Shown in pieces: positions 6,672 to 33,077 of a stretch of 44,148 nucleotides of DNA (the first letter of the stretch is position 1; every line of letters starts with the position of its first letter). The notes under the pieces are model-generated. The model searched no databases. It was not told where the DNA came from and worked only from the letters and a program-made list of their open reading frames with translations. Source of the stretch: Candidatus Andersenbacteria bacterium RIFCSPHIGHO2_12_FULL_45_11b. Its GTDB lineage: Bacteria > Patescibacteriota > Andersenbacteria > UBA10190. Position numbers and translations under genes: made by a program. Location of the stretch: contig MHHS01000032.1 in assembly GCA_001817115.1 (NCBI GenBank), forward strand, positions 11,801 to 55,948, written 5' to 3'.

Positions 6672-7385
6672 CTATACTATAGTATTTCTTAATTCTGCCA
6701 AAGACGCAAGGAGAATATCGGATGCCAGCTTGATGTTTCCGCCGGGAATTTTTTGTGTACGATAGTACTCTTTGAGCCGCAGTGCCATGCGCGCAAGCGC
6801 CGAATTCGATCCATATTGCGCTGCATAGCCATGCATGATGCGCGCAATATCTGTTAGCTCCTCCTCTGAATATGCGCTGCTCGGTCGAATCGCGGAATAT
6901 GTTGCAATGCGCTGCGGAAGATCAATATCATCGTCCATAATTTGCTCAGGCGCAAGAGGTAGTATGAGGCAGCGGGATTTAATAGTTGCAAGTATGCTTC
7001 GTTTTGCAGGTGCGCCGAGTAAAAAACGCGTGGTTGTTCCCGACTCTTCAAGTGTTTTAAGTAGCATATTTGCTGATTCCGGAAGCAGCTGCTCTGCGCG
7101 AGGAATGCACACGATGCGCTTGCCGGATATTGGGCGCGATGCGATAGTTAGTTTGAGTTGTTTGATATCTGCAACGGTAATAGTATTTTTTTCTGCCACA
7201 ATGCGTATTGTATCGGGATGGTTGCCTGCTTGCGACTGCTTGCCTGGCATAGCGTGCTGTATTGCAAAGTCGCACAATTCTTGTATGTCCGTATCGCTAT
7301 GCGAAACTGCCAGTATCGGTTGTTCTGCATGCGCTGAATCAATCCAAGAAGCTATGTGATTGCGTACAGTATCTGTGATACTCAT
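6672..7385 (-). CDS. holB: DNA polymerase III delta-prime-like clamp-loader subunit
   Basis: I take the start at ATG 7385, which overlaps the secF stop as ATGA; the longer track ORF overlaps secF. Motifs NMLLKTLEESGTTTRFLL and TIKSRC (SRC) are present, and there is no Walker A, as expected for delta-prime. Confidence 0.7.
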   Translation of the reverse strand: MSITDTVRNHIASWIDSAHAEQPILAVSHSDTDIQELCDFAIQHAMPGKQSQAGNHPDTIRIVAEKNTITVADIKQLKLTIASRPISGKRIVCIPRAEQLLPESANMLLKTLEESGTTTRFLLGAPAKRSILATIKSRCLILPLAPEQIMDDDIDLPQRIATYSAIRPSSAYSEEELTDIARIMHGYAAQYGSNSALARMALRLKEYYRTQKIPGGNIKLASDILLASLAELRNTIV

Positions 7386-8254
7386 TTTCGTTTCGAGATG
7401 TAGTACAGTAGCGGAGGCGCTACAAAGATAGAAGAATATACTCCGGTAAGCACACCGATAATGAGCGCAACGATGAACCAGCGGATAGATGCTCCGCCAA
7501 AAACCAGCGCTGCTGCTAGCGATAGCAGCGTGGTAAGCATGGTGTTTATTGATCGGCCCATCGTTGCAATAAGCGCGCGATCGATGACTTCTAAAAAGCT
7601 TTTTCCGCGGAGCGCTAGCCATTCTGATCGCAATCGGTCGAAGATAACGATCGTATCGTTTACGGAATATCCAAGAATGGCCAATTGGGCTGTTACGAAG
7701 AGCGTATCAATTTCTGCGCCCCATATTTTTCCAAACACCACAAAACATGCAGTTACTAAAAACAAGTCATGGATCAGCGCATAGATAGCGGCCACACCGA
7801 ATTTCCATGGCGCCATAAGCCCGCCTGTACTTCGGAAGGTGTATGCCAAATAGATGATCATGGCCACAAGCACCACGCCGATTGCCTGGATGGATTTAGT
7901 GCGAAGTTCTTTCCCGATAGTCGGGCCGATTTGCTCGAAGCTGATTTCGTTTTCACGCAAGATATTTGCCTCTCGAAGCGCAGTGATGATTTCTGCATGT
8001 TGCTTATCGTCAATTAATGATGTCTTAATGCGGATTGTTCCGTCTTGCGTTCCTTCTGTTTGAGCGGAAAGTTGGAATTTGCTCGCCAGTAGCTCCTTCG
8101 CTTTCGGCGCATCCTGCGCATTCGCCTGAATTTCAATAGATGATCCCCCGATAAAATCAATTCCCCAGTTCGGTTTTATAATTACAATAATGAGCGTGCT
8201 TGCAATAATTGTTGCTGCAGATATCGTCATCCAGATTTTAGGATTCTTCATCAT
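7382..8254 (-). CDS. secF: protein translocase subunit SecF
   Basis: I take the start at ATG 8254 (MMKNPKIWMTISAAT..), 2 nt after the secD stop; the track ORF is over-extended into secD. The SecD/SecF C-terminal 6-TM domain is present (YSVNDTIVIFDRLRSE). Confidence 0.9.
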   Translation of the reverse strand: MMKNPKIWMTISAATIIASTLIIVIIKPNWGIDFIGGSSIEIQANAQDAPKAKELLASKFQLSAQTEGTQDGTIRIKTSLIDDKQHAEIITALREANILRENEISFEQIGPTIGKELRTKSIQAIGVVLVAMIIYLAYTFRSTGGLMAPWKFGVAAIYALIHDLFLVTACFVVFGKIWGAEIDTLFVTAQLAILGYSVNDTIVIFDRLRSEWLALRGKSFLEVIDRALIATMGRSINTMLTTLLSLAAALVFGGASIRWFIVALIIGVLTGVYSSIFVAPPLLYYISKRK

Positions 8255-8256
8255 GG

Positions 8257-9606
8257 TTAGGTAGTGGGTTGTTTTATTGATTTTGCGCCAAGTAAAAATG
8301 ATGTATGCGTTTTTGGATTTGCAAATACAATATTGAGCATGCTTTTGCTGATTGCAATCGCTGTAAACATGGACAAAATAATGCCCAGAGAAAATGTAAG
8401 TGCGAATCCGCGAATAATAGACGTTCCGAACCCATATAACACAAACCCTGTAATAAGACTTGAGATGTTCGATGCGGAAATAGAGCTCCACGCCGCATTA
8501 AATCCTTCTTTTAGCGAGAATGGAACGGTTTTTCCATCTTTAATATTTTCCCGAAATCGTTCGAATATCAAAACGTTTGCGTCAACAGCCATTCCAATAG
8601 ACATAATAAATCCCGCAATTCCGGCAAGCGTAAGCGTTACAGGAATAAGCTTCATAATCGCGAAGAATAGTACTACGTAGATAAGTAATGCAATAGAAGC
8701 AATAACGCCCGGCAGTCGATAACGGAATATCAGCCAAGCAATTACGGCAATAATGCCTACGATGCCCGCTTTTATGCTTTTTGCGATTGCTGTTTGGCCG
8801 AGGCTTGGGTTAATAACACTCTGTCCGATAAGTGCAATTGGCACGGGCAATGCGCCGGAATTTAAATCTCTCACTTTTTGTTTTGCTTCTTCGAGAGTAT
8901 AGCTCCCAGTTATAACGGCTCGCCCATCTGGAATTGCGGATTGAACCGTTGGCGCTTGGTTTAGTTCCCCGTCAATGTAAATTGCCAGTGGCTTTCCGAT
9001 ATTTGCTTTAGTGATTTCTGCAAATAATTTTGTACCATCGCTGTCAAACAACAGCGTTATTTGAGGGGTGCCAGTTACTTGGTCGAATTCAACAGAAGCT
9101 TTTTTTAAATTTTTCCCGGAAAGTCCGGTTGGTATAAATGTGTCGCCGGTAATAGTGTTTGATCCGCTCTCCCCAAGCATTTTTTTAAGTTCATCGGTCG
9201 TTGGTTCTCTGCGAAAATCAAGCGTTGGCGTTTTTCCAATCTGCTGTTTTGCTTCTTCCGGATCCTGGACTCCCGCAAGCTCTACGATAACCCTATATTC
9301 TCCTTGTGCTACGCTCGTTTGGATCAACGGCTCTGATACGCCAAATGCATTTACTCTTCGCTCTATAACATCGCGTACGCCGGCTAGCGCTTCATTAGGG
9401 TCTTGTCCGTTTTTTGTATCCACATTCGCTCGATATTCCAGCCGAGTACCGCCTTTCAAATCAAGGCCGAGCTTTACGTTCAAATCCCTCGTAAATCCGC
9501 CAATTGCAATGCTCGGGTGCTTCGGGCTATCCACCCAAACAGCAAGACCTACTACAATTGCCAGCACAATACCCCATATCAGTGTTTTTCTCGTGCTCCG
9601 TAACAT
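8257..9606 (-). CDS. secD: protein translocase subunit SecD
   Basis: 449 aa. It has an N-terminal TM helix, a periplasmic domain (LGLDLKGGTRLEY) and a C-terminal 6-TM domain (AVDANVLIFERFRE). Confidence 0.9.
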   Translation of the reverse strand: MLRSTRKTLIWGIVLAIVVGLAVWVDSPKHPSIAIGGFTRDLNVKLGLDLKGGTRLEYRANVDTKNGQDPNEALAGVRDVIERRVNAFGVSEPLIQTSVAQGEYRVIVELAGVQDPEEAKQQIGKTPTLDFRREPTTDELKKMLGESGSNTITGDTFIPTGLSGKNLKKASVEFDQVTGTPQITLLFDSDGTKLFAEITKANIGKPLAIYIDGELNQAPTVQSAIPDGRAVITGSYTLEEAKQKVRDLNSGALPVPIALIGQSVINPSLGQTAIAKSIKAGIVGIIAVIAWLIFRYRLPGVIASIALLIYVVLFFAIMKLIPVTLTLAGIAGFIMSIGMAVDANVLIFERFRENIKDGKTVPFSLKEGFNAAWSSISASNISSLITGFVLYGFGTSIIRGFALTFSLGIILSMFTAIAISKSMLNIVFANPKTHTSFLLGAKSIKQPTT

Positions 9607-9628: not shown

Positions 9629-10195
9629 TTATAGGTTTTCTGCAAGAGTTATGTCATCCCGGGCTTGATCCGGGATCCACGTAGATTCCGGCTCCCCACT
9701 TCGCCCAAGGGCTTCGCGGGGCGCAGCGAAGGCCGAAATGATAGATAGCTTATGTTCGATGATCTTATACGTATCGTTAAATACGAATTTGCCCTCAAAT
9801 TTTTGGCTTCGCAAGAACATCGGCATCCAAAAAATGTCATCTGCCCACATCGCATCATATGGAATTTCGTTTATAGAAAACCATTGCGGTTTCATCTCGT
9901 CTGTTTCTATCGGTTCTCCGAAAAAGTTTGTTGCGCGAAAAATATGTACCTGCCATATTTGTTCTTCACCCGGCAGGGTAAAATCCAGTACGCCAACTTT
10001 TTCGGTTTCGGCAACGCTAATACCGCATTCTTCCAGCACTTCTCGCTTCGCTGCTTCTTCAATATCTTCGCCTTCTTCAACTTTTCCGCCAAATCCGTTC
10101 CATTTCCCCTCGCCTTTCCCCCGCTTCGCCAAGCCAAGCAAAATCTTATCGCCTTGTTGAATTAAGCACAGTGTGAGGAGTTTTTTGTCAGACAT
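9629..10195 (-). CDS. Nudix hydrolase (MTH1/8-oxo-dGTPase-like) with a repeat-encoded C-terminal tail
   Basis: The Nudix box is GGKVEEGEDIEEAAKREVLEECGI. The last ~35 codons (..IISAFAAPREALGRSGEPESTWIPDQARDDITLAENL) are read from the family-A element at 9652-9743. Confidence 0.8.
   Translation of the reverse strand: MSDKKLLTLCLIQQGDKILLGLAKRGKGEGKWNGFGGKVEEGEDIEEAAKREVLEECGISVAETEKVGVLDFTLPGEEQIWQVHIFRATNFFGEPIETDEMKPQWFSINEIPYDAMWADDIFWMPMFLRSQKFEGKFVFNDTYKIIEHKLSIISAFAAPREALGRSGEPESTWIPDQARDDITLAENL
9652..9743. repeat. family-A palindromic interspersed element (copy A1, degenerate right end)
   Basis: Sequence: TGTCATCCCGGgcttgatCCGGGATCCACGT...GATTCCGG...GGCCGAAATGATA. It has the same architecture as the copies at 18163, 19041, 27328 and 38192. 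Confidence 0.75.
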
Positions 10196-10539
10196 TATTT
10201 CTGAAGTATTCTGACTTTAACTTCGAGTTTCTCTATTCTTTCCTCGTGATTTTGAATTCGATCATCGTGGCGCGGAATCGGCGACAGTTTACTTTCGTTT
10301 GAAGTAACCATCTCTAAAATATCTAAAGAAATTTGTTTTAGTTCGTTCAATTGCTTTGTGTGCTGATCTAGTATTTGCGTGTGCTGATCTAGTGTGTTTG
10401 CGTGTCCTTGTTGCCCAGTCTCGAGCGACGCGATTTGCGCAGCTAAGTTGCCGCCCCATATCTCGAGGTCGTGCAATGTGGCCGGTTCCGATTTGCTGTT
10501 CATTTGTGTGCTTTTCTTCATACCGTAACTATAGCGCAT
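10195..10539 (-). CDS. hypothetical coiled-coil protein
   Basis: 114 aa with heptad-like repeats (NTLDQHTQILDQHTKQLNELKQ). It is tightly coupled to both neighbours: TAATG with the downstream Nudix gene and a 2-nt gap from the upstream Nudix stop. Confidence 0.5.
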   Translation of the reverse strand: MRYSYGMKKSTQMNSKSEPATLHDLEIWGGNLAAQIASLETGQQGHANTLDQHTQILDQHTKQLNELKQISLDILEMVTSNESKLSPIPRHDDRIQNHEERIEKLEVKVRILQK

Positions 10540-10541
10540 AT

Positions 10542-10964
10542 TTACACATCAAAAAAGTTCCTTCCGGTTTTGTATGCTTCGATGTAGTTTTCTACTACTT
10601 CAAATAAAGGACTTGGCAATGCGTCAATATCATACCAATCCCACGATTCGCATTTATCAGGCTCTAATAATTGTGGTTCTCCAGATTCCCATTCTGCAAC
10701 CATTCCTATATCTACATAATGTTTTGGAGCATATGTCTTTAAGTTCGACAGGCAAGAAAAGCGGACGTTCTTGATCTCAATTCCCGCCTCTTCGCGCGTT
10801 TCTCTTTTTATGCAATCCACAAACGATTCTAAATGTTCCAAGTGGCCTCCTGGCCCAGCATATACGTTGGCCGCATGCGCGCCTTTGCGCTTTCCTAGCA
10901 AAATTTTCTTGTCCTTAAATATAAGAACGCCCACGCCCACCTTCGGCCGTTGCTCTGGATTCAT
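10542..10964 (-). CDS. Nudix hydrolase (small MutT/dNTP pyrophosphatase-like)
   Basis: 140 aa with a clear Nudix box: GPGGHLEHLESFVDCIKRETREEAGIEI. Confidence 0.85.
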   Translation of the reverse strand: MNPEQRPKVGVGVLIFKDKKILLGKRKGAHAANVYAGPGGHLEHLESFVDCIKRETREEAGIEIKNVRFSCLSNLKTYAPKHYVDIGMVAEWESGEPQLLEPDKCESWDWYDIDALPSPLFEVVENYIEAYKTGRNFFDV

Positions 10965-10970
10965 AGATTA

Positions 10971-11273
10971 TTATGATTCATCTAAAATAATTCTTTTATC
11001 AAATCTACCACGCTTTTGAGCTTTTTCTGATTTTGTTTTTTCAATATCTTCTGACGCGAATTTTTTATATGCAATAATTGTGTCAATTACCTCGAGAATA
11101 TTCGCTACCTCTTCAACGCTTTCCGATTCAGTAAATTCTTGTACTTCTTCCGCTAATTTTTCTTTCAACTTCTCCCAATACTCGGCATCCGTAGCAATAT
11201 GCGTTATCGCCTCCCGGCCTTTGCTAGTAATAATTTCAGGAATATTGTCGCGTACGAGTTTATTGTATTTCAT
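10971..11273 (-). CDS. MazG-like / PRA-PH-like all-alpha nucleoside triphosphate pyrophosphohydrolase
   Basis: 100 aa. The MKYNKLVRDNIPEII... N-terminus and the acidic EExxE helices (LAEEVQEFTESESVEEVANILEVID) are typical of the small MazG-related house-cleaning family. The call rests on recognition only. Confidence 0.55.
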   Translation of the reverse strand: MKYNKLVRDNIPEIITSKGREAITHIATDAEYWEKLKEKLAEEVQEFTESESVEEVANILEVIDTIIAYKKFASEDIEKTKSEKAQKRGRFDKRIILDES

Positions 11274-11647
11274 ATATTAAAATTGTTTTTATATGCGTTT
11301 CCGGCTTTACGATACGCTTCAATTTCATATTTGTTATTCTGGTATCCATTTTTTAGTAATTCAATGTAGTACAGAATTGGTTGGATGATTGGCATTCTTT
11401 GATATTGCTCGATGTGTATTAACTCATGTTCCAAGTCTTTATGCTCAATATTTGGTCCTAGTATAACTAAATTTCCTACTGCTGTTGCTCTGATATTCTT
11501 CAGATAACCAAATCTCCACCATAATTTTTCAACAGTAACAATAACTGCTCCGGGGTTCTTGTGTAGCGATATTTTCTTTGGGATTGATATTAATGCTATG
11601 AGAGAGCCTAAAATAGAATACGGAAGATTAAGAATTAGTCTTATCAT
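11270..11647 (-). CDS. hypothetical small membrane-anchored protein with an HExxH motif
   Basis: 125 aa with an N-terminal hydrophobic helix and an HELIH motif (LEHELIHIEQYQ). ATGA overlaps occur at both ends. Confidence 0.4.
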   Translation of the reverse strand: MIRLILNLPYSILGSLIALISIPKKISLHKNPGAVIVTVEKLWWRFGYLKNIRATAVGNLVILGPNIEHKDLEHELIHIEQYQRMPIIQPILYYIELLKNGYQNNKYEIEAYRKAGNAYKNNFNI

Positions 11648-12198
11648 AACGCTTTTTTAATATCATCCCAGGTTATGTTGCTGATTTTCTCAATTTCTTT
11701 AAATATCTGTTGCGGTGTTTTGCTTGTGGCATCTATAAATATTATGCCCAATTCTTTTGCCTTCTGCTTAATTTCTTCAGCGTATTTTAGTGCATTTTCA
11801 AGTTGGTAGTCAGTTTTTCCCATTGGATTATTCCTACTCTCATGACGCAAATTTTTTCTGATAACATTTAATTTTACGTCTAAAAAATATACGCTATCAA
11901 ATAAATCCATGACGCTAAAAACATTTCCTGACAATCCGAATAAATATATTTCCTTTTGCTTACTTAGAAATTGTTTTAAAAATTCTTTGTTCCAAAGGAA
12001 TTCATGGGTATCAAGAAAAACTTTATCAGCATCTTCGGGATACGCAACTTTGTTTCCTTGATTATTAAACCAGCCAGATAGACCGGCAACTAAATCTGCA
12101 TCAACCGCATTAACTCCTTTCTTTTTTAGTTCGCTTGATATGTATGTCTTACCAGAGCCAGAAGGACCAATGACTAAGATTTTATTGTTATTTTCCAT
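11644..12198 (-). CDS. P-loop NTPase / nucleoside(-tide) kinase-like protein
   Basis: I take the start at ATG 12198 (MENNNKILVIGPSGSGKTYISS), 5 nt after the secA TAA; the track ORF is over-extended into secA. The Walker A motif is GPSGSGKT. Confidence 0.6.
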   Translation of the reverse strand: MENNNKILVIGPSGSGKTYISSELKKKGVNAVDADLVAGLSGWFNNQGNKVAYPEDADKVFLDTHEFLWNKEFLKQFLSKQKEIYLFGLSGNVFSVMDLFDSVYFLDVKLNVIRKNLRHESRNNPMGKTDYQLENALKYAEEIKQKAKELGIIFIDATSKTPQQIFKEIEKISNITWDDIKKAL

Positions 12199-14839
12199 GG
12201 CACTTTTTAAATTTCTTGCCTGATCCGCATGGGCATGGGTCGTTTCTGCCGACGTCTTTATACGGATTATGAAGCGGGCCTTCGGAAGACTGTTGTGCAG
12301 GCTGTGATGCGTTTTGCGCTTGTGCAGTAGGTTGGGGGGTTCCCTGTTCCGCCAAAGCATGAATGCTTGCAGCTTCAGTGTGCTGGGCTATGCCCGCAGG
12401 TTCGGCGGGGAGATTCGCATGCTGATGCTCTTCTACTCGCTCTGCGCGCAGCACCGTCTCGAGGATCGATCCCTTGATTGTACCGAGCAGTTGTTGAAAT
12501 AATCGATGTCCTTCCTTTTGATATTCAACAAGCGGGTCGCGCTGGCCATATCCGCGAAGCCCGATTCCTGTACGCAGATAATCCATCGTATCTAAATGGT
12601 CCATCCATAGCGTGTCAATAGAACGCAGCGCAATTGCCTGCTCTAGTTTTGTCATTGTGTCTTCGCTTAACTCCTCTTTTTTTGCAGTAATTTTTTGAGA
12701 AAGAATTGTACCCACTTCCGTACCTATCGCATCGCGCGCAGCATCCGGCCCAGAGGGGCTTTCTTGCGCAATAATGTCAGACAGCCTTGTGTGTATGTCT
12801 GCGGTTGGTGCATTAGTGAGCGCGTGGATAGATTCTGCAATTTCTTCTGTGTTCCAATCGTCCGTTGCGGAGCTTGCCGTATGCGTCGCAATCAACATAG
12901 CTCCCTGTTCTCGCGCCAATTCTATGATGCGAGCGTGAATGCTGAGCGCTTCTTGATTCGGTTCTTTCCATGTTCCAGACTCCAGCAACGATCTGCGCAA
13001 CGTATAGATCGCATTTCGTTGCTTATTTAATACGTTATCGTATGACAATACTTGCTTGCGCATATCGAAGTAGTATCCTTCTACCCGTTCTTGAGCTCCT
13101 TCCAATGCCTTGCTTACCAATCCGTTTTCAATCGGCTCGTCTTCTGGAATATTCAAGCGCTCCATAATGCTTTTAATTTTTGACCCGCCGAATACGCGCA
13201 TCACATCATCCTCCATGCTCACATAAAATTGCGTTTCCCCAGGGTCGCCTTGCCTGCCGGAGCGCCCGCGCAACTGATTATCGATGCGCCGCGCTTCATG
13301 GCGCTCTGTGCCCAGTACGCATAATCCGCCCAGTGCAGATACGCCATCCTCAAGCTTAATGTCAGTACCGCGCCCAGCCATGTTGGTTGAAATAGTAACC
13401 GCTCCCTTTTTTCCTGCCTGAGAAATAATTTCTGCCTCTCTGGCATGGTGCTTCGCATTTAATACTTCATGAGGCACGCCTTTTTGTTTCAGTAATTCAG
13501 AAATATATTCCGATTTTTCAATAGCAATAGTGCCTACAAGCACTGGTTGCCCATGCTCGTGGCGTTGCGCGATATCATCAACTAACTTTCTAAACTTTGC
13601 TTTTTCGTTGACGTATACGCGGTCAGGTTTATCTGAGCGGATTGTTTTTTGGTTGGTTGGAACTACTACTACATCCAAATTATATACTTGCTCGAATTCT
13701 TCTGCGGACGTTACTGCAGTTCCTGTCATCCCGCCGATGTGCTTGTATAATCGGAAAAAGTTTTGGAACGTAATAGATGCTAGCGTCCTGCTTTCTTGCT
13801 GCACTGCAACATGCTCTTTTGCTTCCAGTGCCTGATGCAGCCCCTCCGAATACCGGCGACCTTCCATGAGGCGACCGGTAAATTCATCAACAATAACAAC
13901 CTTTCCATCTTGTATGATGTAGTCTTTATCTTTGTGGTATAGCGTTTGCGCCCGCAGGGCTTGTTCCAAATGGTGAACGAATCGGATTCCTTTTTCTGCA
14001 TAAATATTTTCGATTCCTAACTGTTTTTCGACATAGGTTACTCCTGCGTCGGTGAGTGTTGCTGCTTTTCTCTTTTCATCTACGTTATAGTGTTCATCTT
14101 CGGTAAGCAGCGGAACAATGCGAGAAAATTGGTCGTATAGGGTAGTGGAGTCTGCGTCGGGAGCAGAAATAATCAGCGGCGTTCTTGCTTCATCAATCAA
14201 AATACTATCCACTTCGTCTACGAGCGCATAATACAGTTCTCGCTGTACGAGCTGTTCCAGCTGCTGTGCCATGTTATCGCGCAGGTAATCGAATCCGAAT
14301 TCGTTGTTGGTGCCGTATGTAATATCGCATGCGTATGCCGCGCGTTTTTCTTGCGGAGCTTGCCCTGCAACGATGACGCCTACAGTGAGCCCAAAAAATT
14401 CGTACACTGAGCGCATCCACTCGGCATCGCGCTGGGCCAAGTAATCATTCGCCGTTACCAGATGCGCCCCCTTTCCTGCAAGTGCATTTAATATCAGCGG
14501 TAATGTAGCAACTAAAGTTTTTCCTTCTCCCGTTTTCATTTCCGCGATGCTGTCTTTGAGTAGCGCTAAGCCTCCGATTAATTGCACGTCAAAGTGGCGC
14601 ATATTGAGCGTTCGCTTTGCAGCTTCGCGGATGCCCGCAAAAACTTCCGGAATATGCGCGTCGATTTCCCCCCTGTTTTTTCCTTGATATTGTCCGACGT
14701 ATTTTTTTAATTCTTCATGAGAAAGCTTAGAGACTATCCCCTCTAGCGCATTAATCTGCGTAACCACTGGCCGATACGCCTCAGCGGCCTTTTCGTGGCG
14801 CGAAGCTCCGCGAAAAGGTATAAAATCAAATATTCCCAT
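12188..14839 (-). CDS. secA: preprotein translocase ATPase SecA
   Basis: 883 aa. It has DEAD-like motor motifs (MKTGEGKTLVATLP, LVDEVDSILIDEARTPLIIS, TNMAGRGTDI) and the C-terminal zinc finger CPCGSGKKFKKCHG. Confidence 0.97.
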   Translation of the reverse strand: MGIFDFIPFRGASRHEKAAEAYRPVVTQINALEGIVSKLSHEELKKYVGQYQGKNRGEIDAHIPEVFAGIREAAKRTLNMRHFDVQLIGGLALLKDSIAEMKTGEGKTLVATLPLILNALAGKGAHLVTANDYLAQRDAEWMRSVYEFFGLTVGVIVAGQAPQEKRAAYACDITYGTNNEFGFDYLRDNMAQQLEQLVQRELYYALVDEVDSILIDEARTPLIISAPDADSTTLYDQFSRIVPLLTEDEHYNVDEKRKAATLTDAGVTYVEKQLGIENIYAEKGIRFVHHLEQALRAQTLYHKDKDYIIQDGKVVIVDEFTGRLMEGRRYSEGLHQALEAKEHVAVQQESRTLASITFQNFFRLYKHIGGMTGTAVTSAEEFEQVYNLDVVVVPTNQKTIRSDKPDRVYVNEKAKFRKLVDDIAQRHEHGQPVLVGTIAIEKSEYISELLKQKGVPHEVLNAKHHAREAEIISQAGKKGAVTISTNMAGRGTDIKLEDGVSALGGLCVLGTERHEARRIDNQLRGRSGRQGDPGETQFYVSMEDDVMRVFGGSKIKSIMERLNIPEDEPIENGLVSKALEGAQERVEGYYFDMRKQVLSYDNVLNKQRNAIYTLRRSLLESGTWKEPNQEALSIHARIIELAREQGAMLIATHTASSATDDWNTEEIAESIHALTNAPTADIHTRLSDIIAQESPSGPDAARDAIGTEVGTILSQKITAKKEELSEDTMTKLEQAIALRSIDTLWMDHLDTMDYLRTGIGLRGYGQRDPLVEYQKEGHRLFQQLLGTIKGSILETVLRAERVEEHQHANLPAEPAGIAQHTEAASIHALAEQGTPQPTAQAQNASQPAQQSSEGPLHNPYKDVGRNDPCPCGSGKKFKKCHGK

Positions 14840-23811: not shown

Positions 23812-25284
23812 CTACCTATCCGGATTTATGGTGATGTTGACGCGCTGGCCGATAGAGGGAATGCTTCGCACCCAGAATGGCCATAGTTTGATGTTTACCG
23901 TCTGTACTCCTGAAAGGTTCTGCAGATACGTGGTAGCCTCGTCCTGGCTGCGGCCGACGAGCTTATCTCGCAGAGTATCGATAGAAATATTCGGTATGGT
24001 TGTGTGTGTTACGCGGGCAGTGACAGATGCGGACTCTTTATCCCAATCTACGGATTCAACGGATTTTGTAAACGAGATTGGTGCAGGAAATAGGGTAGAG
24101 CTTGGGTCCAAGTGCTCGGAAAGCGCAGTATCAAGAATTTTTCCAAGCGCGCTGTCTTCATACGCGAACACTCGAGCAGTTGCATCCGCGGTAAACGAAA
24201 TTGTATCAGCCTTATCGCCCGTTTTTTGCCCGGGGGCAAAATTGGAGAGCTGTACATCCCAGCTTTCATCTAGAATTGACCAGCCCGATTGCAATTGTCC
24301 ATGAGCAGCTGCTTCCACTTGCGCTTTCGCCTGCGCTTTTGCCGCTTCATGCGCTTGGTCAATATCGGAGTCTGCGACTACTTTTACTTCTTGGCCGCTG
24401 CCCCCAGTTAATGTGCTTTCTGCTTGCCCATATACGACCGTTTGCGCAGAACTATCCAGCGCCGCAAAATTCAAGTGTTGCGGGGTAATATTTCCTTTCT
24501 CTCCTGCCTCTGCAGCCTCGACTTCTACCGTTGCGCTGGCAATGTTTGAATCTGAAGACGCGGGAATAATTTCGGAGCCGAGCATGTAAAAGAGCGTACC
24601 GTCTTTTGTGACCAGCCGGCTTTTCTCTTTAATTTTTTGTACGTCGAATGTTTTATTAAATATGCGTACGGTTCCTTTTGCTTTTGTACCCACAATTTCC
24701 GTAGTAGTAACAGGAGAAGCGCCCTCTACGCGTATTTGTTGAGAAAAAACTGTTCCGGGCACCGTATTGGGTTCGCTAGCCGTATTGCTTGCAATAGTGA
24801 GTTTTTGGTCAACAAGAAGCGGCGCTGTTTGGAGACGCAAATCAATAGTCGCGGAAGGAAGGAAAATAAATGCGGCAATGCCGGCGGTAAGCAGCACTAC
24901 TGCCAAGAGTGATAGCGCGATTTTTGTTTCTTTTGTTCCCAGCATCATAGCAGCCTTGCTAGGCTTTTTCTTCTTGGCTTTCTTTTGCTGGGGGGCAATG
25001 TTGTCAACAACTGCAAACAAAGGCCGTTTTTCCGTATCCACGTCTTCCTCGTTTTCCTGCTGTCGTGAAGCTGGTTTTTCTGGAAGAGTCTGCTTAGGTA
25101 TGTGCACGTTTGTAATGGGAATTTGAGATCCAGTAAAACGTCTGCTTGAAGTTTTTGCACTGGATTTTCTCGCAGCAGCCTTCTCTGCATGCTTCTCATA
25201 CAATTTTTTCGCTTCCGGCGGAAGTTCTTCCGGAATATCTTTTCGGGAAAACGATGGCTTTTGAGATGGGGTTATGTCGCGCAT
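23812..25284 (-). CDS. hypothetical membrane-anchored protein: disordered K/E/P-rich N-terminus, one TM helix, large extracytoplasmic beta-rich domain
   Basis: 490 aa. The TM helix is IALSLLAVVLLTAGIAAFIFL, at about residue 120. The remainder is Thr/Ser/Ala/Val-rich. I cannot assign a family with confidence. Confidence 0.6.
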   Translation of the reverse strand: MRDITPSQKPSFSRKDIPEELPPEAKKLYEKHAEKAAARKSSAKTSSRRFTGSQIPITNVHIPKQTLPEKPASRQQENEEDVDTEKRPLFAVVDNIAPQQKKAKKKKPSKAAMMLGTKETKIALSLLAVVLLTAGIAAFIFLPSATIDLRLQTAPLLVDQKLTIASNTASEPNTVPGTVFSQQIRVEGASPVTTTEIVGTKAKGTVRIFNKTFDVQKIKEKSRLVTKDGTLFYMLGSEIIPASSDSNIASATVEVEAAEAGEKGNITPQHLNFAALDSSAQTVVYGQAESTLTGGSGQEVKVVADSDIDQAHEAAKAQAKAQVEAAAHGQLQSGWSILDESWDVQLSNFAPGQKTGDKADTISFTADATARVFAYEDSALGKILDTALSEHLDPSSTLFPAPISFTKSVESVDWDKESASVTARVTHTTIPNISIDTLRDKLVGRSQDEATTYLQNLSGVQTVNIKLWPFWVRSIPSIGQRVNITINPDR

Positions 25285-27432: not shown

Positions 27433-28050
27433 TCAATCCGGCTGCTGGGTGACCATCGTATCTTGGTTATTCGGCAATATGGTTGGCGTAAATTGCAGGG
27501 AATCCCGATAAGGGTTCGGCCATGAGGCATGAATAGGGCCTTCAAATTTCTCCATAAAATCGCGCGCTTGCTCAATTGTTTTCTTTTCAATAGCAATTTC
27601 GTGAGCAAGGTTAAGTATAAGCGTATTCGTGTGCTCATTCTCGCAAAACGCAGTCATTTCCCCGCGTGTTTTATCGAGCAGGATGCTGCCGTCGAATGCT
27701 GCAATTTCATCATGTTTATCTGTCGGAATCATTGCGTCTACTGTTTGCTCGAGCAGATCGATATGCGGATGCGGCACATTATGGCGCACTCCTTCGCGAT
27801 GCAATACGGTTCGTTTCCATGGGCCGTTGTAGTGCCATATCAGCATCGTCTGCGTGGCTTCGTGCGGCATGCCATAGGAATGAATAAGGATACTTGCCAT
27901 TTTGCGGGAAGCGTTCGGCCAGCTGGAAATAAGATCCTGTACTGCAGATCCTTGAATGCGAGGTGCCTTAATTCTTGTCATGCCATGCATACCTTCACTA
28001 TTCATATATTGCAAGAGTCTGTCAATGCTGCAGGCGAAGTATTTCGACAA
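27433..28050 (-). CDS. hypothetical protein (orphan); start uncertain
   Basis: 205-aa ORF whose first codon is TTG; the internal ATGs at codons 16, 21 and 24 are alternative starts. I recognise no domain. Confidence 0.45.
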   Translation of the reverse strand: MSKYFACSIDRLLQYMNSEGMHGMTRIKAPRIQGSAVQDLISSWPNASRKMASILIHSYGMPHEATQTMLIWHYNGPWKRTVLHREGVRHNVPHPHIDLLEQTVDAMIPTDKHDEIAAFDGSILLDKTRGEMTAFCENEHTNTLILNLAHEIAIEKKTIEQARDFMEKFEGPIHASWPNPYRDSLQFTPTILPNNQDTMVTQQPD

Positions 28051-28774: not shown

Positions 28775-30628
28775 TTAGATTTTCGGCGGTTTAGGCGGTG
28801 TGTAATTCGAAATAGGGTTTATTTTTGACGGAGCGATTGGCGGTAGAGGAACGCTTGTTTGTTGCTCGTCTCGCGATTCTCTCCCACCCCCTCTAACTCC
28901 CCCTCGGGCAGGGGGAGAAACTCTCTCCTTTTTCCGCTTATCGAAACATTCTTTGCAGAATACTTCCTTTTCCGGATCTGGTTTGAATGGCACTTCTGTT
29001 TGTTTTCCGCAATTCGAACAAATTGCTGGGTAAAGCTGTATAGTCTTTTTTGGTATTCGCGCCTCCTCAACACCTGGTGTTCTACCGTTAACACCAGGTG
29101 TTTTCCCGGCGCTTGCATCGTCCTTCTTCCCTCCCAATAATGTCGATAAATCCGTAATCACTTCCTGTTTTGCAGGAGAAATGACGACGTCTTCCAGTTC
29201 GTTTTCTTTGATAGGTTGAGGTTGTGTTTGCTGAGGTTTATTTAGCGTGTTTATAGGACGCGAGTTTTGCTGTAGTTGGCTATTTTGTGGTTGTCCTTGC
29301 TTGCCAAGGAAAATCTGTGGCTTAGTGGATTGCCGACCATCCTCTTGCACGTCCATTGTTGAGCTGCTCCACCGCGCAATTTTATCTTCAATTTCTTTTC
29401 GAGGAGACCCGTACCGCTCTCTGGATACGCGCAAAACTTTTTCTTTGCTATTATATGTATCTGATACAGGCGGAATAGTTTCCATTGAGAACGGCGCACT
29501 TGTAGCTCCCTGAATCATGAGCTTGATGTATGCATTGTATTTATCCAAATTTACTAAATCGGTCTGCGTAAAATACGGCATAAATTCTTTTTCCAGATAT
29601 TCTGCATCGAATGCGCCGACTCGAAAGGAGATGATAGTACCCACGTTTCCGAATACAGCATCGCGAACAACTTCCTCCATCTGCGTGATATATTGGTGGG
29701 CGATAATAAGGTTTAAGCGATATTTGCGGGCTTCAGACAAAATGGTCGCGAACGATTCCGTGGCAAAATTTTGGAATTCATCCACGTATAAATAGAAATC
29801 TTTTCGGTCGGCTTCCGGAATGCTTGCCCTATCCATTGCGGCCAGCTGGAGCTTAGTGATAAGCATGGCGCCTAAGAGGGCGGAGTTATCTTCCCCAATT
29901 CTTCCCTTTGATACGTTGATGAGAAGAATTTTTCCGTTATCCATAATATCTTTCATATCAATGGTGCTTTTCGGCTGGGCGACGATATTGCGAATAATAG
30001 AGGAGCTTAAAAATTGCCCCACTTTATTTTGGATCGGGGATATCGCCTCGCTTCGGAATCGTTCGTTGTAGTTTGCGAATTCATTTTCCCAAAAGGCCTT
30101 TACTACAGGGTCCGATATATAATCAACGACCTTTTTCCGATACCCTTTATCGGAAAGCATGCGCATGATTCCAAGCATAGTACTCGAGGGGTAATCAAGA
30201 AGCGCTAAAATCACGTTGCGTAAAATATACTCCAAACGAGGCCCCCAAGAATCGGCCCAAATTTTCTTTAACGAGCTTACCAGGCCAGATGCGACGAGGT
30301 ATTTGTATTGCGGATCGACAGATTCAAGCGGATTAAACGCTACGGGGAAATCAATATCTGCAGGGTCGAAATATACCACGTCATTGATTCTTTCTGGCGG
30401 AATGGCATCTGCTATTTTCTCCGCAACGTCGCCATGGGGGTCTACGAGAGCAAGGCCTCGCCCCATTTTTACGTCCTGTAAAATCATGTTTTCCAAAAGC
30501 GTAGTTTTTCCTACTCCAGTTTTTCCAATCACGTATACGTGGCGTCGGCGATCGTCCGTGTAAATGCCGAATGGCCTGCGTTGGTGTCGGAAATTTGTTT
30601 GTCCTATGACGGTTATCTCTTCAGGCAT
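28775..30628 (-). CDS. VirD4/TraD/TraG-like (T4SS coupling-protein-like, FtsK-HerA superfamily) P-loop ATPase fused to a C-terminal CxxC-x17-CxxC zinc ribbon
   Basis: 617 aa. It has Walker A (GKTGVGKTT), Walker B (FYLYVDEFQNF) and ARKYRLNLIIAHQYITQM, then a Q/P-rich linker and CSNCGKQTEVPFKPDPEKEVFCKEC (exactly 17 residues between the CxxC pairs). There is no N-terminal TM segment. Confidence 0.75.
   Translation of the reverse strand: MPEEITVIGQTNFRHQRRPFGIYTDDRRRHVYVIGKTGVGKTTLLENMILQDVKMGRGLALVDPHGDVAEKIADAIPPERINDVVYFDPADIDFPVAFNPLESVDPQYKYLVASGLVSSLKKIWADSWGPRLEYILRNVILALLDYPSSTMLGIMRMLSDKGYRKKVVDYISDPVVKAFWENEFANYNERFRSEAISPIQNKVGQFLSSSIIRNIVAQPKSTIDMKDIMDNGKILLINVSKGRIGEDNSALLGAMLITKLQLAAMDRASIPEADRKDFYLYVDEFQNFATESFATILSEARKYRLNLIIAHQYITQMEEVVRDAVFGNVGTIISFRVGAFDAEYLEKEFMPYFTQTDLVNLDKYNAYIKLMIQGATSAPFSMETIPPVSDTYNSKEKVLRVSRERYGSPRKEIEDKIARWSSSTMDVQEDGRQSTKPQIFLGKQGQPQNSQLQQNSRPINTLNKPQQTQPQPIKENELEDVVISPAKQEVITDLSTLLGGKKDDASAGKTPGVNGRTPGVEEARIPKKTIQLYPAICSNCGKQTEVPFKPDPEKEVFCKECFDKRKKERVSPPARGGVRGGGRESRDEQQTSVPLPPIAPSKINPISNYTPPKPPKI
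28876..28930. repeat. family-B hairpin element (B5) inside the ATPase 3' end
   Basis: The hairpin CTCCCCCtcgggcaGGGGGAG has the same loop as B1. It is translated as RVSPPARGGVRGGGRE, immediately after the zinc ribbon. Confidence 0.65.
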
Positions 30629-30636
30629 AGCAATGG

Positions 30637-31914
30637 TTATGCGTAGGGCAAATTAGCAGGAGGGTTCTTGTGCCCAGACTTTGCACGGGCAACGCCTGGA
30701 GCGGAAACGTATTTTACAGGGAAGTGGTAAATAGTTGCCAGCTCTTCTGCATTGAGCATTTGTCCAGAATCTACACCGAAGAAATCTCTCCATTGAAAGT
30801 TTAGAAAGGCGTTGCGTTCTCGCAGGTATCGTCGGCGATCTTTCATGATAAAACTAGGGCCGTTTGTTTTTGTTTCCCCGTCTGGCTTGAAGGAGTTTAA
30901 GTGCGATGCTGCAAATTGTTTGAATATGCCGAAGCCTCGAGCGATATTCGGTTTCTTTAGCTGGCCTACCGGAGCAATATGCACGATGCGGATTTTTGTT
31001 TTATAGCAATTTCCTGAAATCTTTTGCAAAATACTTTTCATCTTTGCGTCATCTACCGGATTGAAAAAACGGAGCACTTTTTCTTCTTTCTTATCTTCTA
31101 GCACAATCGGTCCGCTGAAAATAGCTCTGAAAAATTCACCCGGCAAGGCAGACATCAATGCTTGTGCGTTCTCCCACATGCCTGGCTTAGCTTTCTTCGC
31201 CTGGCCGGAAATTTCAGCGATGCGCTGTTCTCCTTCTTGCTCCCATTTCTTGATTCGTTTGCCGTCAACGGGCCGAACTAATACCTGCACCCAAAACTCT
31301 TCCCCAGGTTCTACGTTCGTGAGCGCTTCTACGATAATTTGCATCGGGTCTACAAACGGAATTTCTTCTGCCAAATTTGCTTCGAATTCCCGGTATGTTT
31401 TTATCGGAAGGATATCATCTTCAGTGAGCACAACGTCGCCCCCCCACATTTCAAATGTAGTGCGCAAACCTTCTACGTTGTACCGCTGGGTGTAATCCTC
31501 AACTTCTTGAATATCTGCTTTCGGGTATTGCGCATAAATGATTCCCTCGAACAATTGCCGGTGCGCCGTGGGCACCACGACAACGAATTTTGCGGAATGT
31601 TGCGTGCAATAAATTTCAAAGCTGGCCCAGGGTTCTAAATATCCATCGAAGTATTTTTCATTGAAATCGGGGCTTTTATGCATTCCACCCATCACCTCGA
31701 AGATAACTTCCATTGATCGGGGAGTTTCTTCCGACTCTTCCGGCAAAGTAACCTGGTAGAACGTCCATTCAATAGCGCTTACGTAGTCGATCATTTTTAG
31801 GAGGAGGTACGTTTTCCATGCGATCCACATAATCATCCAAACAACAAGGAGCCAGCCGAACGTGAGCATGGTTGGCCCGAAGTCCCTGGCAAAGTCAGCG
31901 AAAGAATAACCCAT
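30637..31914 (-). CDS. hypothetical membrane protein (N-terminal TM hairpin plus a ~370-aa cytoplasmic domain), partner of the T4CP-like ATPase
   Basis: 425 aa. The TM region is MLTFGWLLVVWMIMWIAWKTYLLL. Its stop lies 8 nt upstream of the ATPase ATG. I cannot name a domain with confidence. Confidence 0.6.
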   Translation of the reverse strand: MGYSFADFARDFGPTMLTFGWLLVVWMIMWIAWKTYLLLKMIDYVSAIEWTFYQVTLPEESEETPRSMEVIFEVMGGMHKSPDFNEKYFDGYLEPWASFEIYCTQHSAKFVVVVPTAHRQLFEGIIYAQYPKADIQEVEDYTQRYNVEGLRTTFEMWGGDVVLTEDDILPIKTYREFEANLAEEIPFVDPMQIIVEALTNVEPGEEFWVQVLVRPVDGKRIKKWEQEGEQRIAEISGQAKKAKPGMWENAQALMSALPGEFFRAIFSGPIVLEDKKEEKVLRFFNPVDDAKMKSILQKISGNCYKTKIRIVHIAPVGQLKKPNIARGFGIFKQFAASHLNSFKPDGETKTNGPSFIMKDRRRYLRERNAFLNFQWRDFFGVDSGQMLNAEELATIYHFPVKYVSAPGVARAKSGHKNPPANLPYA

Positions 31915-31948
31915 GTCCTGTATTGTACTGCAAAAATTCGATTAGTGC

Positions 31949-32968
31949 TTATGCAAGCGCGTACAGGTCGTTTTCTAATTTTCTAAACTTAGTGTTGTTT
32001 TGCAGGCTCAATAATACGGTGTTTTTCTTCACCATTCGCTGCTTCAGGACTGCTTGTACTAGCTCATCTTTTGACATCGGCTTAGTTGCTTCGCGCAAAA
32101 TAGATGCCAATACATCAGCGACAGTCCCTGCCATAAAGCCCCACTCTTTGAGACCGTACAGTCCGCGTCCTACTAATACGAATCGTCCATCTTTGATCAG
32201 TTCATTGTGAACTGTTTGCGGGTTTGCCTTTTTGTGATCGAATTCGGCGCTATTGATCATTTGAGTAATGTCTCGAAAATGTGCGGGCTTTCCGTGGCGT
32301 CGAAGAACGGCAAATGCTTTATCGCCAACTCCGCGAGGAGATGTTTCTGCCCAGCCCACTAATCCCCAATCTCCAAATGCTGTTGGAGAAATATTTTTGC
32401 TTGCATGCAATGCGGCATGAATATGAGTATTTGGAACTACTGCCCCCTGTGCTTGTGCTCGGATTTCATTTACTAGCTGCTCTAGTGCGATGGGAGCATT
32501 GTTCTTCTTAAGCACTTCCATTGCCATAACGACAATTTTTTCGATGTTATCGTGCAGCGATGCCGGGTGCTGCCAATGCGTCTCAAATAAAGAGTTTGGA
32601 GGTACGGGCGTAAATGATGGCAAAATTGTTAGGAAGAAATGAATGGTATGCGGATCAATTGGCATGCCGGTACGTTCTTCGACAACAGAGACAATGTGGC
32701 TTTCAGACATAAGACCGCCGTGCTCTGCAAAAATTTCAGCAAGCAAAAGCTCCGCTCCCCCAAGAATGTCTTGCATGGAAGTGAGTTCCTTCTTCGCGTT
32801 TGCTTCAATTTGGCGCACGCGTTCGCGAGTAATTCGATACTCTTTGCCAATGCTTTCGAGCGTCTCTTTCTCGTCTTTTTCAATGCCAAAACGGCGTACG
32901 ATAATATCGCGAGATCGGGCGTCGAGTCTCTGTAATGCGTCTTCGGTTAGCTGAGAAAAATTAATCAT
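31949..32968 (-). CDS. sigma-70 region-4-like HTH protein with C-terminal HARE-HTH-like winged-helix modules
   Basis: 339 aa. The N-terminus matches sigma region 4.2: RRFGIEKDEKETLESIGKEYRITRERVRQIEANAKKEL. The C-terminus has FRDITQMI...VHNELIKDGRFVLVGRGLYGLKEWGF, typical of HARE-HTH (RNAP delta-like). Sigma regions 2 and 3 are absent. Confidence 0.65.
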   Translation of the reverse strand: MINFSQLTEDALQRLDARSRDIIVRRFGIEKDEKETLESIGKEYRITRERVRQIEANAKKELTSMQDILGGAELLLAEIFAEHGGLMSESHIVSVVEERTGMPIDPHTIHFFLTILPSFTPVPPNSLFETHWQHPASLHDNIEKIVVMAMEVLKKNNAPIALEQLVNEIRAQAQGAVVPNTHIHAALHASKNISPTAFGDWGLVGWAETSPRGVGDKAFAVLRRHGKPAHFRDITQMINSAEFDHKKANPQTVHNELIKDGRFVLVGRGLYGLKEWGFMAGTVADVLASILREATKPMSKDELVQAVLKQRMVKKNTVLLSLQNNTKFRKLENDLYALA

Positions 32969-33077
32969 AATATTTTTTTAGCATATCATGTAAATATTGT
33001 CAATATAATACCAACAACTTATGACTATACTAAGTATTCTTTATTCTGTCTACTATGGTTGATAGTAATATTGTCAA
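32969..33077 (-). promoter_or_regulatory. AT-rich murC/HTH intergenic region with duplicated TTGACAATATT boxes and candidate promoters
   Basis: On the minus strand, TTGACAATATT occurs at 33077..33067 (overlapping the murC stop) and at 33003..32993. Candidate 1 is TTGACA(33003..32998)-17-TAAAAA(32980..32975), which would place the transcription start about at the ATG and give a leaderless mRNA. Candidate 2 is TAGACA(33052..33047)-17-TATAGT(33029..33024). Confidence 0.35.

Follow-up and report, generated by a model that had tools for sequence, protein, structure and literature searches.

Patescibacteria, which account for a large part of bacterial diversity, are dependent on host cells. Homologues of the VirD4-type coupling protein of type IV secretion systems (T4SS), the type IV coupling protein (T4CP), occur in 2,918 of 3,035 Patescibacteria genomes (96%), and VirB4 occurs in 2,417 (80%) (Quinonero-Coronel et al. 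2025, PMC12102498). Of the 5,713 T4CP homologues, 148 lie near virB4, relaxases are rare in Patescibacteria, and the authors state that exaptation of the T4CP homologues cannot be ruled out (PMC12102498). In S. epibionticum the T4SS is reported to be essential and the T4CP homologue non-essential (PMC12102498); the essential T4SS cluster has no recognisable coupling protein or relaxase (Wang et al. 2023, PMC10633639). Here we describe a three-gene module in a 44,148-nucleotide stretch of Candidatus Andersenbacteria bacterium RIFCSPHIGHO2_12_FULL_45_11b (contig MHHS01000032.1, positions 11,801 to 55,948; the window). Gene 1 encodes a helix-turn-helix (HTH) protein with a sigma-70 region 4, gene 2 a DUF8128 membrane protein, and gene 3 a soluble T4CP-type ATPase. 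We suggest that genes 2 and 3 probably encode a split T4CP of a distinct "long" class, made up of a transmembrane (TM) anchor, a DUF8128 domain, and a T4CP motor. The ATPase itself is not new, because orphan T4CP homologues have already been reported in 96% of genomes; these orphans, VirD4-type profile matches far from virB4, are probably of the same family (PMC12102498). The main text of that report deals with the ATPase only and does not contain the word "sigma," and its passages on the homologues mention neither a split architecture nor a synteny with sec genes.

A preliminary description, made from the sequence alone, had called the 617-aa product of gene 3 a VirD4/TraD-like ATPase that has a zinc ribbon in place of the usual membrane anchor, and our searches agree on each point. 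TrwB_AAD_bind (32.6 bits; cut-off, 20.5), T4SS-DNA_transf (28.9; cut-off, 20.1), TraG-D_C (26.3; cut-off, 22), and DUF87 all scored above their Pfam cut-offs. The hydrophobicity scan found no hydrophobic segment in the ATPase, and the N-terminal TM domain that T4CPs carry in the same chain is absent. Its only sequence matches in the PDB were TrwB and DotL. The hhalign alignment to TrwB covered residues 118 to 393, the soluble part that follows the membrane domain, with a probability of 94%; the alignment to VirB4 covered the P-loop only. Pfam gave no match to the VirB4-type ATPase families (AAA_10, CagE_TrbE_VirB, TraC_F_IV, and P-loop_TraG), and TIGR00929 matched the P-loop only. The NCBIfam T4CP equivalogs (TraD, CD1115, TrbC, and CedD) were all far below their cut-offs, the best scores being 47 bits against 366 (SXT_TraD) and 46 bits against 250 (CD1115). 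Judged by these profiles, the ATPase family is a distant, distinct branch of the T4CP group. With the VirD4, TrwB, TraD, and TraG proteins it shares the P-loop motor, the Walker A (G35KTGVGKT) and Walker B (D283-E284) motifs, which are invariant in 30 sequences, a predicted helical insert, and profile homology to the soluble part of TrwB. It differs from them in its missing membrane domain, its E value of about 1e-5 to TrwB, its added zinc ribbon and Pro-rich tail, the absence of relaxase and T4SS genes nearby, and a conservation far above that usual for T4CPs.

The zinc ribbon of the ATPase has the cysteine pattern C537-x2-C540-x17-C558-x2-C561 (28946-29020). Both TIGR04272 (56.6 bits; cut-off, 36) and zf_Tbcl_2 (PF23477; 53.7 bits; cut-off, 27) matched it. 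The ribbon is present in 40 of 65 complete module ATPases, and the C-terminal extension is variable. The AlphaFold2 (AF2) model of the ATPase had a predicted local distance difference test score (pLDDT) of 49 and was unfit for a fold search, probably because the alignment was shallow. This low-confidence model places a helical region at about residues 107 to 217, between Walker A and Walker B. Relatives of the ATPase core are found on 467 plasmid records, from Pseudomonas, Streptomyces, Bacillus, Clostridium, haloarchaea, and Sulfolobus. The closest one outside Patescibacteria is a standalone 395-aa plasmid protein of Sulfitobacter mediterraneus (41% identity; E=9e-106; L090, 6989-8176), which has no DUF8128 partner and adjoins transposases and a DUF3768 gene.

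The 425-aa product of gene 2 had been described as carrying an N-terminal TM hairpin and as belonging to no family, and neither statement stands. The Kyte-Doolittle scan found one hydrophobic segment, which AF2 models as one long helix, and the protein is therefore not a TM hairpin. Precomputed annotation places PF26449 (DUF8128, an uncharacterised family) on nearly all of its homologues, including a 100%-identical record (P0001). Our Pfam scan of the protein and 44 aligned homologues gave no DUF8128 match; the Pfam copy used probably did not contain the PF26449 model. No papers were found in a full-text literature search for DUF8128. The family has a C-terminal signature in which E391, H397, P399, P406, P419, and P423 are invariant. 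This motif can be aligned with Bacillus phage G gp156 and with a fusion protein of the actinomycete Embleya, in both of which it lies N-terminal to the ATPase domain. The two Patescibacteria proteins also end in short, conserved, proline-rich tails, PPxNLPYA in DUF8128 (30640-30660) and F-x-GP-x-PP-x-L in the ATPase (28775-28930). These tails, together with the ELEDVV...ITDL element of the ATPase, may be docking motifs for a shared partner.

The link between the two proteins comes from single-chain relatives, to which a structure search, tblastn, hhalign, and a phage-family match led independently. A Foldseek search with gene 2, which had been proposed at the outset, was run with the AF2 model of DUF8128 (pLDDT, 80; predicted template modelling score, 0.76). 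In BFVD it matched phage G Gp156 (825 aa; E=3e-18) and phage JL S5MSQ0 (913 aa; E=1.5e-16; TM-score, 0.55), followed by proteins of phage Slash, phage G Gp155, and a "component of type IV transporter system." Searched alone by tblastn, the ATPase core matched gp156 at 1e-41 and JL gp150 at 3e-23, both on their C-terminal halves. By hhalign, the DUF8128 profile aligned with gp156 residues 34 to 320 (probability, 96.7%; E=3.6e-10), the signature LNxEE...HxP included, and the ATPase profile aligned with residues 379 to 781 (probability, 99.9%; E=2.9e-32). The phage family phrog_5156 (824 positions) is collinear with the pair: DUF8128 residues 92 to 313 align with positions 74 to 286 (E=1e-6), and ATPase residues 25 to 421 align with positions 408 to 808 (E=2e-62). 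An 812-aa protein on a plasmid of Embleya (Actinomycetota) has a TM segment at residues 34 to 56 that is followed by RRRR, a DUF8128-like region at residues 77 to 398 (E=1.2e-4; motif ELAALAHLP...AP...PP...IP), and the ATPase after it. It combines in one chain the equivalents of both Patescibacteria proteins, with the anchor as well. On large plasmids of C. botulinum and C. sporogenes, tblastn coverage by gp156 residues 53 to 776 spans both halves. Thus, at the level of sequence profiles, there are single-chain proteins whose N-terminal half is homologous to DUF8128 and whose C-terminal half is homologous to the ATPase. Because these proteins have the same N-to-C order, DUF8128 and the ATPase appear to be the halves of one machine. 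The split, membrane-docked arrangement that had been supposed from the gene order is supported by these homologues, and by the Embleya form down to the TM helix.

In the three elements whose gene context was read, the surroundings of the fused proteins are of the DNA-transfer type. Phage G gp156 is preceded by gp153, a TrbL_4 (VirB6-like) protein, and by the VirB4-like gp155 (P-loop_TraG, AAA_10). In phage JL, the order is a ParM-like protein, gp150, and a Replic_Relax protein. The Embleya plasmid has PrgI/VirB3, a VirB4-like protein (P-loop_TraG, AAA_10, TraC_F_IV), the fusion, Replic_Relax, and an SLT+NlpC/P60 hydrolase. In all three, the fused protein stands where monoderm DNA-transfer modules have their coupling protein. 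These "long" coupling-type proteins (phrog_5156 with gp156 and gp150, the Embleya protein, and those of C. botulinum and C. sporogenes) are all uncharacterised. They are homologous to and collinear with the Patescibacteria pair in both halves. The Embleya form shares with Patescibacteria DUF8128 the single N-terminal TM helix, which the phage forms lack. The single-chain forms are one polypeptide, carried by mobile elements and phages, and they have neither the zinc ribbon nor an HTH partner, whereas in Patescibacteria the two halves are separate genes, lie on the chromosome, and are vertically conserved. No fused protein was among the best 150 matches of a profile search of 1.84 billion proteins, because the fusions are too distant to rank there. 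A 1,016-aa DUF8128-ATPase fusion in a locus (L059) of a Patescibacteria metagenome-assembled genome (MAG) proved to be an artefact, in which a run of masked N, translated as X, bridges two genes. The N terminus of a haloarchaeal 1,193-aa relative was not detectably DUF8128.

Two further observations concern these replicons. In Herelleviridae phage JL (L089, 1913-7404), the ParM-like actin (ALP_N/MreB-like_C), the fusion gp150, and the Replic_Relax protein gp149 form a plasmid-like block. The replicons with a fused coupling-type protein (Embleya NZ_CP108778.1, L091, and the C. botulinum and C. sporogenes plasmids, H66-H83) are mostly typed as "non-mobilizable" by MOB-suite, the Embleya plasmid despite its PrgI-VirB4-T4CP-Replic_Relax-hydrolase cluster. 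Standard plasmid typing may miss this class of fused T4CP and relaxase.

The same DUF8128 model also resembles VirB4. In the PDB, its top 13 matches were all chains of R388 TrwK/VirB4 (E=2e-5 to 2e-3), and the first unrelated fold came at an E value of about 9e-3. The VirB4-like phage G gp155 matched the model in BFVD as well (E=1.9e-6). The cytoplasmic domain of DUF8128 is provisionally predicted to have a fold like that of TrwK/VirB4, and the match presumably falls on the N-terminal half of VirB4. VirB4 (TrwK) has an N-domain followed by a RecA-like motor, an order that is mirrored by DUF8128 followed by the ATPase. In Patescibacteria, however, the motor half is T4CP-like and not VirB4-like.

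The pair is widespread in Patescibacteria. A DUF8128 profile search returned 3,488 clusters at 50% identity, of which 1,107 had E<=1e-30. DUF8128 is present in at least 569 species genomes and in the lineages Magasanik-, Uhr-, Kuenen-, Falkow-, Buchanan-, Kerfeld-, Moran-, Portnoy-, Terry-, Lipton-, and Wolfe-bacteria and Minisyncoccales. We compared the neighbourhoods of 81 loci, of which 77 had room for the ATPase gene and 80 could be scored for the HTH gene. The ATPase gene directly followed DUF8128 in 70 of the 77, the HTH gene directly preceded it in 57 of the 80 (71%), and both were present in 52. The three families therefore do co-occur well beyond this genome, across many Patescibacteria lineages, as had been anticipated. 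Clustering of the neighbouring open reading frames (ORFs) gave the usual order as secA-secD-secF-(HTH)-DUF8128-ATPase-(efp, mnmA, or alaS) (e.g., L021, L041, and L050). No T4SS, relaxase, integrase, or phage genes were among the recurrent neighbours of the 81 loci. When the window proteins were compared with those of other Patescibacteria lineages and classes, median identity was 65% for the ATPase core, 49% for SecD, 47% for AlaS, 46% for SecA, 38% for SecF, 35% for the HTH protein, and 30% for DUF8128. The DUF8128-ATPase pair is thus a core chromosomal unit under very strong constraint. Some module-bearing MAG records (L013, L017, L031, L033, L047, L056, L059, and L069) are titled "uncultured Gammaproteobacteria," "Bdellovibrionales," "Candidatus Binatia," or "Acutalibacteraceae." These titles are probably placeholder or wrong taxonomic labels, or the contigs are contaminants.

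The 339-aa product of gene 1 joins a sigma-70 region 4 (Sigma70_r4, residues 11-60; 48 bits; cut-off, 24) to a HARE-HTH domain (52 bits; cut-off, 26). The latter also passed TIGR04567, the model for the delta subunit of RNA polymerase (53.7 bits; cut-off, 42). The profile of the protein family matched only region 4 of SigA/RpoD in the PDB (E of about 4e-16). The preliminary description had named both domains correctly and had spoken of HARE-HTH modules in the plural; a single one is above threshold, and other winged helices (WH_Rok and TBPIP) are weak. It had also noted that sigma regions 2 and 3 are absent, and we found no match to them in Pfam, NCBIfam, or the PDB profile search. The NCBIfam sigma-factor models were all far below their cut-offs. 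Because regions 2 and 3 are absent, protein 1 cannot be a sigma factor; its likeness to sigma-70 lies in a group-1-like region 4. It resembles RNA polymerase delta (RpoE) in its HARE-HTH domain, here at residues 217 to 276 of 339, and has no counterpart of the acidic C-terminal tail of delta. A literature search for HARE-HTH combined with sigma found nothing relevant. A 100%-identical record of the protein (P0389) is from Candidatus Andersenbacteria.

We suggest the following mechanism for a split T4CP. DUF8128 would be inserted into the membrane by its one TM helix, with the N terminus out and the C terminus in, and its cytoplasmic domain would dock the soluble motor there. The motor, presumably a hexamer like TrwB, would drive a substrate into a membrane channel at the expense of ATP. 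The likeliest channel would be the VirB4/VirB6 T4SS that most Patescibacteria encode elsewhere, in a cluster of its own that has no coupling protein. The HTH protein would most plausibly bind DNA as an adaptor or regulator, in the manner of relaxosome accessory proteins; its membership in the machine is the weakest link of the proposal. We infer both the cargo and the channel of the split motor.

It is in fact quite possible that the HTH gene is an unrelated neighbour, such as a general RNA polymerase-associated factor or an operon regulator, and that the machine consists of genes 2 and 3 alone. The HTH gene is missing upstream in 22 of 80 loci, and in several of these a multi-TM protein of about 130 aa stands in its position. 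The fused relatives neither contain nor adjoin such an HTH protein. In its distribution, the zinc ribbon of the ATPase does not follow the HTH gene, being present in 12 of 13 HTH-less loci and in 25 of 41 HTH-bearing ones. On the other side, 57 of 80 loci, from many named lineages, have the HTH gene immediately before DUF8128 and in the same orientation, and it keeps this place in the window, where the preceding genes are not the usual secDF. The co-variation count also served to examine the zinc ribbon as a binder of the HTH protein, and this idea was dropped, as there was no positive association. The HTH-less loci of the Magasanikbacteria type have a protein of roughly 95 to 140 aa with several hydrophobic segments directly upstream of DUF8128 (e.g., L009:4784-5173, L018:1806-2204, L046:1402-1827, and L084:5597-5881; two were scanned, with no Pfam match). 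It could be an extra membrane partner, perhaps VirB3-like.

Several results weigh against a split T4CP that serves a T4SS. Neither the window nor the 81 related loci have T4SS, relaxase, or channel genes close to the module. T4CP homologues occur in a larger share of genomes (96%) than VirB4 does (80%), and the T4CP homologue of S. epibionticum, which is possibly not of the DUF8128-linked type, is reported to be non-essential (PMC12102498). The HTH gene is missing from about a quarter of the loci, and 65% identity across classes is atypical for coupling proteins. The hexamer and its pore are assumed from the family, because the ATPase model is too poor. The TrwK/VirB4 match has a TM-score of about 0.35 and an identity of 8%, and the part of VirB4 that is matched could not be read from the output. 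DUF8128 sequence profiles found nothing when compared with TrwK, gp155, an Embleya VirB4-like protein, and all PDB sequences. We therefore rejected a sequence-level link between DUF8128 and VirB4, every profile comparison having failed, and treat the link as structural only.

The main rival is that the pair is an exapted, T4SS-independent translocase with a housekeeping role of its own at the membrane, acting for example on chromosomal or incoming DNA or on a nucleoprotein, with the HTH protein as its DNA-targeting subunit. Prevalence, conservation, and genomic context favour this alternative, and the T4SS context of the fused relatives that were examined disfavours it. The ATPase core is conserved above SecA, SecD, and AlaS, the module always lies in core-genome contexts, and in 71% of loci, from many named lineages, the pair is directly preceded by the HTH gene. 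The excess of T4CP homologues over VirB4, the 148 of 5,713 that lie near virB4, and the rarity of relaxases fit as well, and exaptation is raised by the authors of that survey (PMC12102498). However, every single-chain relative whose context was read (phage G, phage JL, and Embleya) lies in T4SS-type or relaxase surroundings, and no alternative channel is encoded next to the pair. The gap between 96% and 80% may be explained in part by genome incompleteness, and DNA is only a putative substrate. We consider such an exaptation unlikely on balance. In its full form, a split coupling protein turned into a core T4SS-independent translocase that the HTH protein targets to DNA and that moves DNA or nucleoprotein at the membrane, we hold it to be doubtful. 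If it were true, the pair would be a housekeeping motor, so far unrecognised, of a very large bacterial radiation and a living intermediate between the VirB4 and T4CP architectures, with possible roles in genome maintenance, nucleic-acid salvage, or host-episymbiont exchange.

The gene order raises the further idea of an accessory motor of Sec-linked protein export, in which secA-secD-secF-(HTH)-DUF8128-ATPase would reflect a function in the translocation of proteins or membrane proteins. secDF is immediately upstream in 54 of the 81 loci, with SecA further upstream in 13, and some T4CPs handle protein substrates, among them DotL, one of the PDB matches of the ATPase. However, housekeeping synteny can be merely inherited, no Sec-interaction motif was identified, and in the window lineage the module stands behind murC, with secA and secDF (7382-9606 and 12188-14839) 15 to 20 kb downstream on the same strand. 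We therefore think that a rearrangement separated the module, together with alaS, from the sec genes in the window and in its three closest loci (L006-L008), and we regard a Sec-linked role as improbable. Finally, a chromosome segregation or division translocase like FtsK is very improbable: the place at the end of the dcw cluster (behind ftsW-murG-murC), the level of conservation, and the Q/P-rich linker recall FtsK, but this adjacency is restricted to the window and L006-L008, with secDF upstream in most others, FtsK_SpoIIIE matched the P-loop only (E=0.07; 12.9 bits; cut-off, 24), and a separate ftsK is annotated in Saccharibacterium TM7x.

The ORF calls agree with the three co-directional genes and the gaps of 34 and 8 nucleotides that had been read at the outset; their positions and those of their domains are given in Table 1.

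Table 1. Positions in the window of the three genes of the module, their domains and motifs, and the preceding spacer
Feature	Position	Strand	Basis
AT-rich spacer between murC and the HTH gene, candidate promoter of the module	32969..33073	-	sequence reading
Gene 1, 339-aa DNA-binding protein, sigma-70 region 4 followed by winged-helix/HARE-HTH domain(s)	31949..32968	-	ORF, profile matches
Sigma-70 region 4 (4.2 HTH), residues about 4-64	32777..32959	-	Pfam PF04545, E=8e-13
HARE-HTH winged helix, residues 217-276	32141..32320	-	PF05066, E=7.8e-14
Gene 2, 425-aa DUF8128 protein, probable membrane-anchored N-terminal half of a split coupling protein	30637..31914	-	ORF, profiles, AF2 model
Single N-terminal TM helix, residues 13-39	31798..31878	-	Kyte-Doolittle scan; AF2 helix 5-47
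DUF8128 C-terminal signature (LNAEELATIYHFP...AP...PPxNLPYA), residues 386-425	30640..30759	-	alignment
Gene 3, 617-aa soluble T4CP-type ATPase, probable motor half of a split coupling protein	28775..30628	-	ORF, profiles, hhalign
ATPase core, residues 1-420, P-loop domain and helical insert	29369..30628	-	hhalign, invariant residues
Walker A	30503-30526	-	alignment
Walker B	29777-29794	-	alignment
Variable low-complexity Q/P-rich linker, residues 421-530, conserved ELEDVV...ITDL at its end	29039..29368	-	alignment
CxxC-x17-CxxC treble-clef zinc ribbon, residues 531-566	28931..29038	-	PF23477, E=1.7e-14; TIGR04272, E=1.6e-15

The AT-rich region that had been noted ahead of the module is the 105-nucleotide spacer between murC and the HTH gene. 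It contains TTGACA-type hexamers and two sigma-70-like sites, each with 10 of 12 positions (33052..33024 and 32994..32967). The number of such sites over the whole region was not in excess of the shuffle expectation, so these two are positional evidence only. Upstream of the module are mraY-murD-ftsW-murG-murC, and downstream are LOG, a hypothetical ORF, and alaS. The remainder of the window is housekeeping as well (mreBC, rseP, frr, holB, secDF, secA, rpoA, and rpsD). This confirms the earlier view of a chromosomal, non-mobile locus between murC and LOG. No integrase, relaxase, T4SS, or phage genes, phage structural genes included, were found near the module in the window, the tRNA search found none and the Rfam search gave no match in the window, and GC content is flat across the module, with no compositional shift. 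The locus therefore has none of the marks of an integrative conjugative element or a phage. Among the 2.9 million viral contigs of IMG/VR there was a single partial match, at a contig edge, and we rejected a phage or mobile-element origin on this result together with the tRNA and Rfam searches. The matched contig (L087; IMGVR_UViG_3300009537_000513, 60-461) carries the terminal part of a DUF8128 gene and residues 1 to 91 of an ATPase homologue, and it is probably a misclassified cellular fragment. Anti-phage defence was rejected too, as PADLOC gave only weak matches of the mad8/HerA P-loop type and an MzaA match confined to region 4.

Three other places in the window deserve mention. A stretch of low GC content (0.33, against about 0.45) at 10195-11647 holds four small ORFs on the same strand (114, 140, 100, and 125 aa), of which, by eye, one is NUDIX-like and one MazG-like. 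It is flanked by a NUDIX gene and an AAA_18 kinase-like gene and may be a small acquired islet. A 490-aa ORF at 23812-25284 matched Baseplate_J below threshold only (E=3e-4) and no PHROG. The 205-aa ORF between LOG and alaS (27433-28050) was given no family by Pfam or PHROGs.

If genes 2 and 3 do encode a split coupling protein, the orphan ATPase of Patescibacteria would be one half of a membrane-anchored machine; this would give DUF8128 a role and define the unit to study. It would bear on the thousands of orphan T4CP homologues that PMC12102498 leaves unexplained, and on a T4SS that is essential in the one species tested and has no coupling protein in its cluster (PMC10633639). The motor is under unusual constraint, above that of SecA. 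The comparison also brings out a neglected "long" class of coupling proteins that is carried by actinomycete plasmids, C. botulinum toxin plasmids, and Bacillus phages. A VirB4-like fold of DUF8128 next to a T4CP-type motor would bear on how the two T4SS ATPases diverged.

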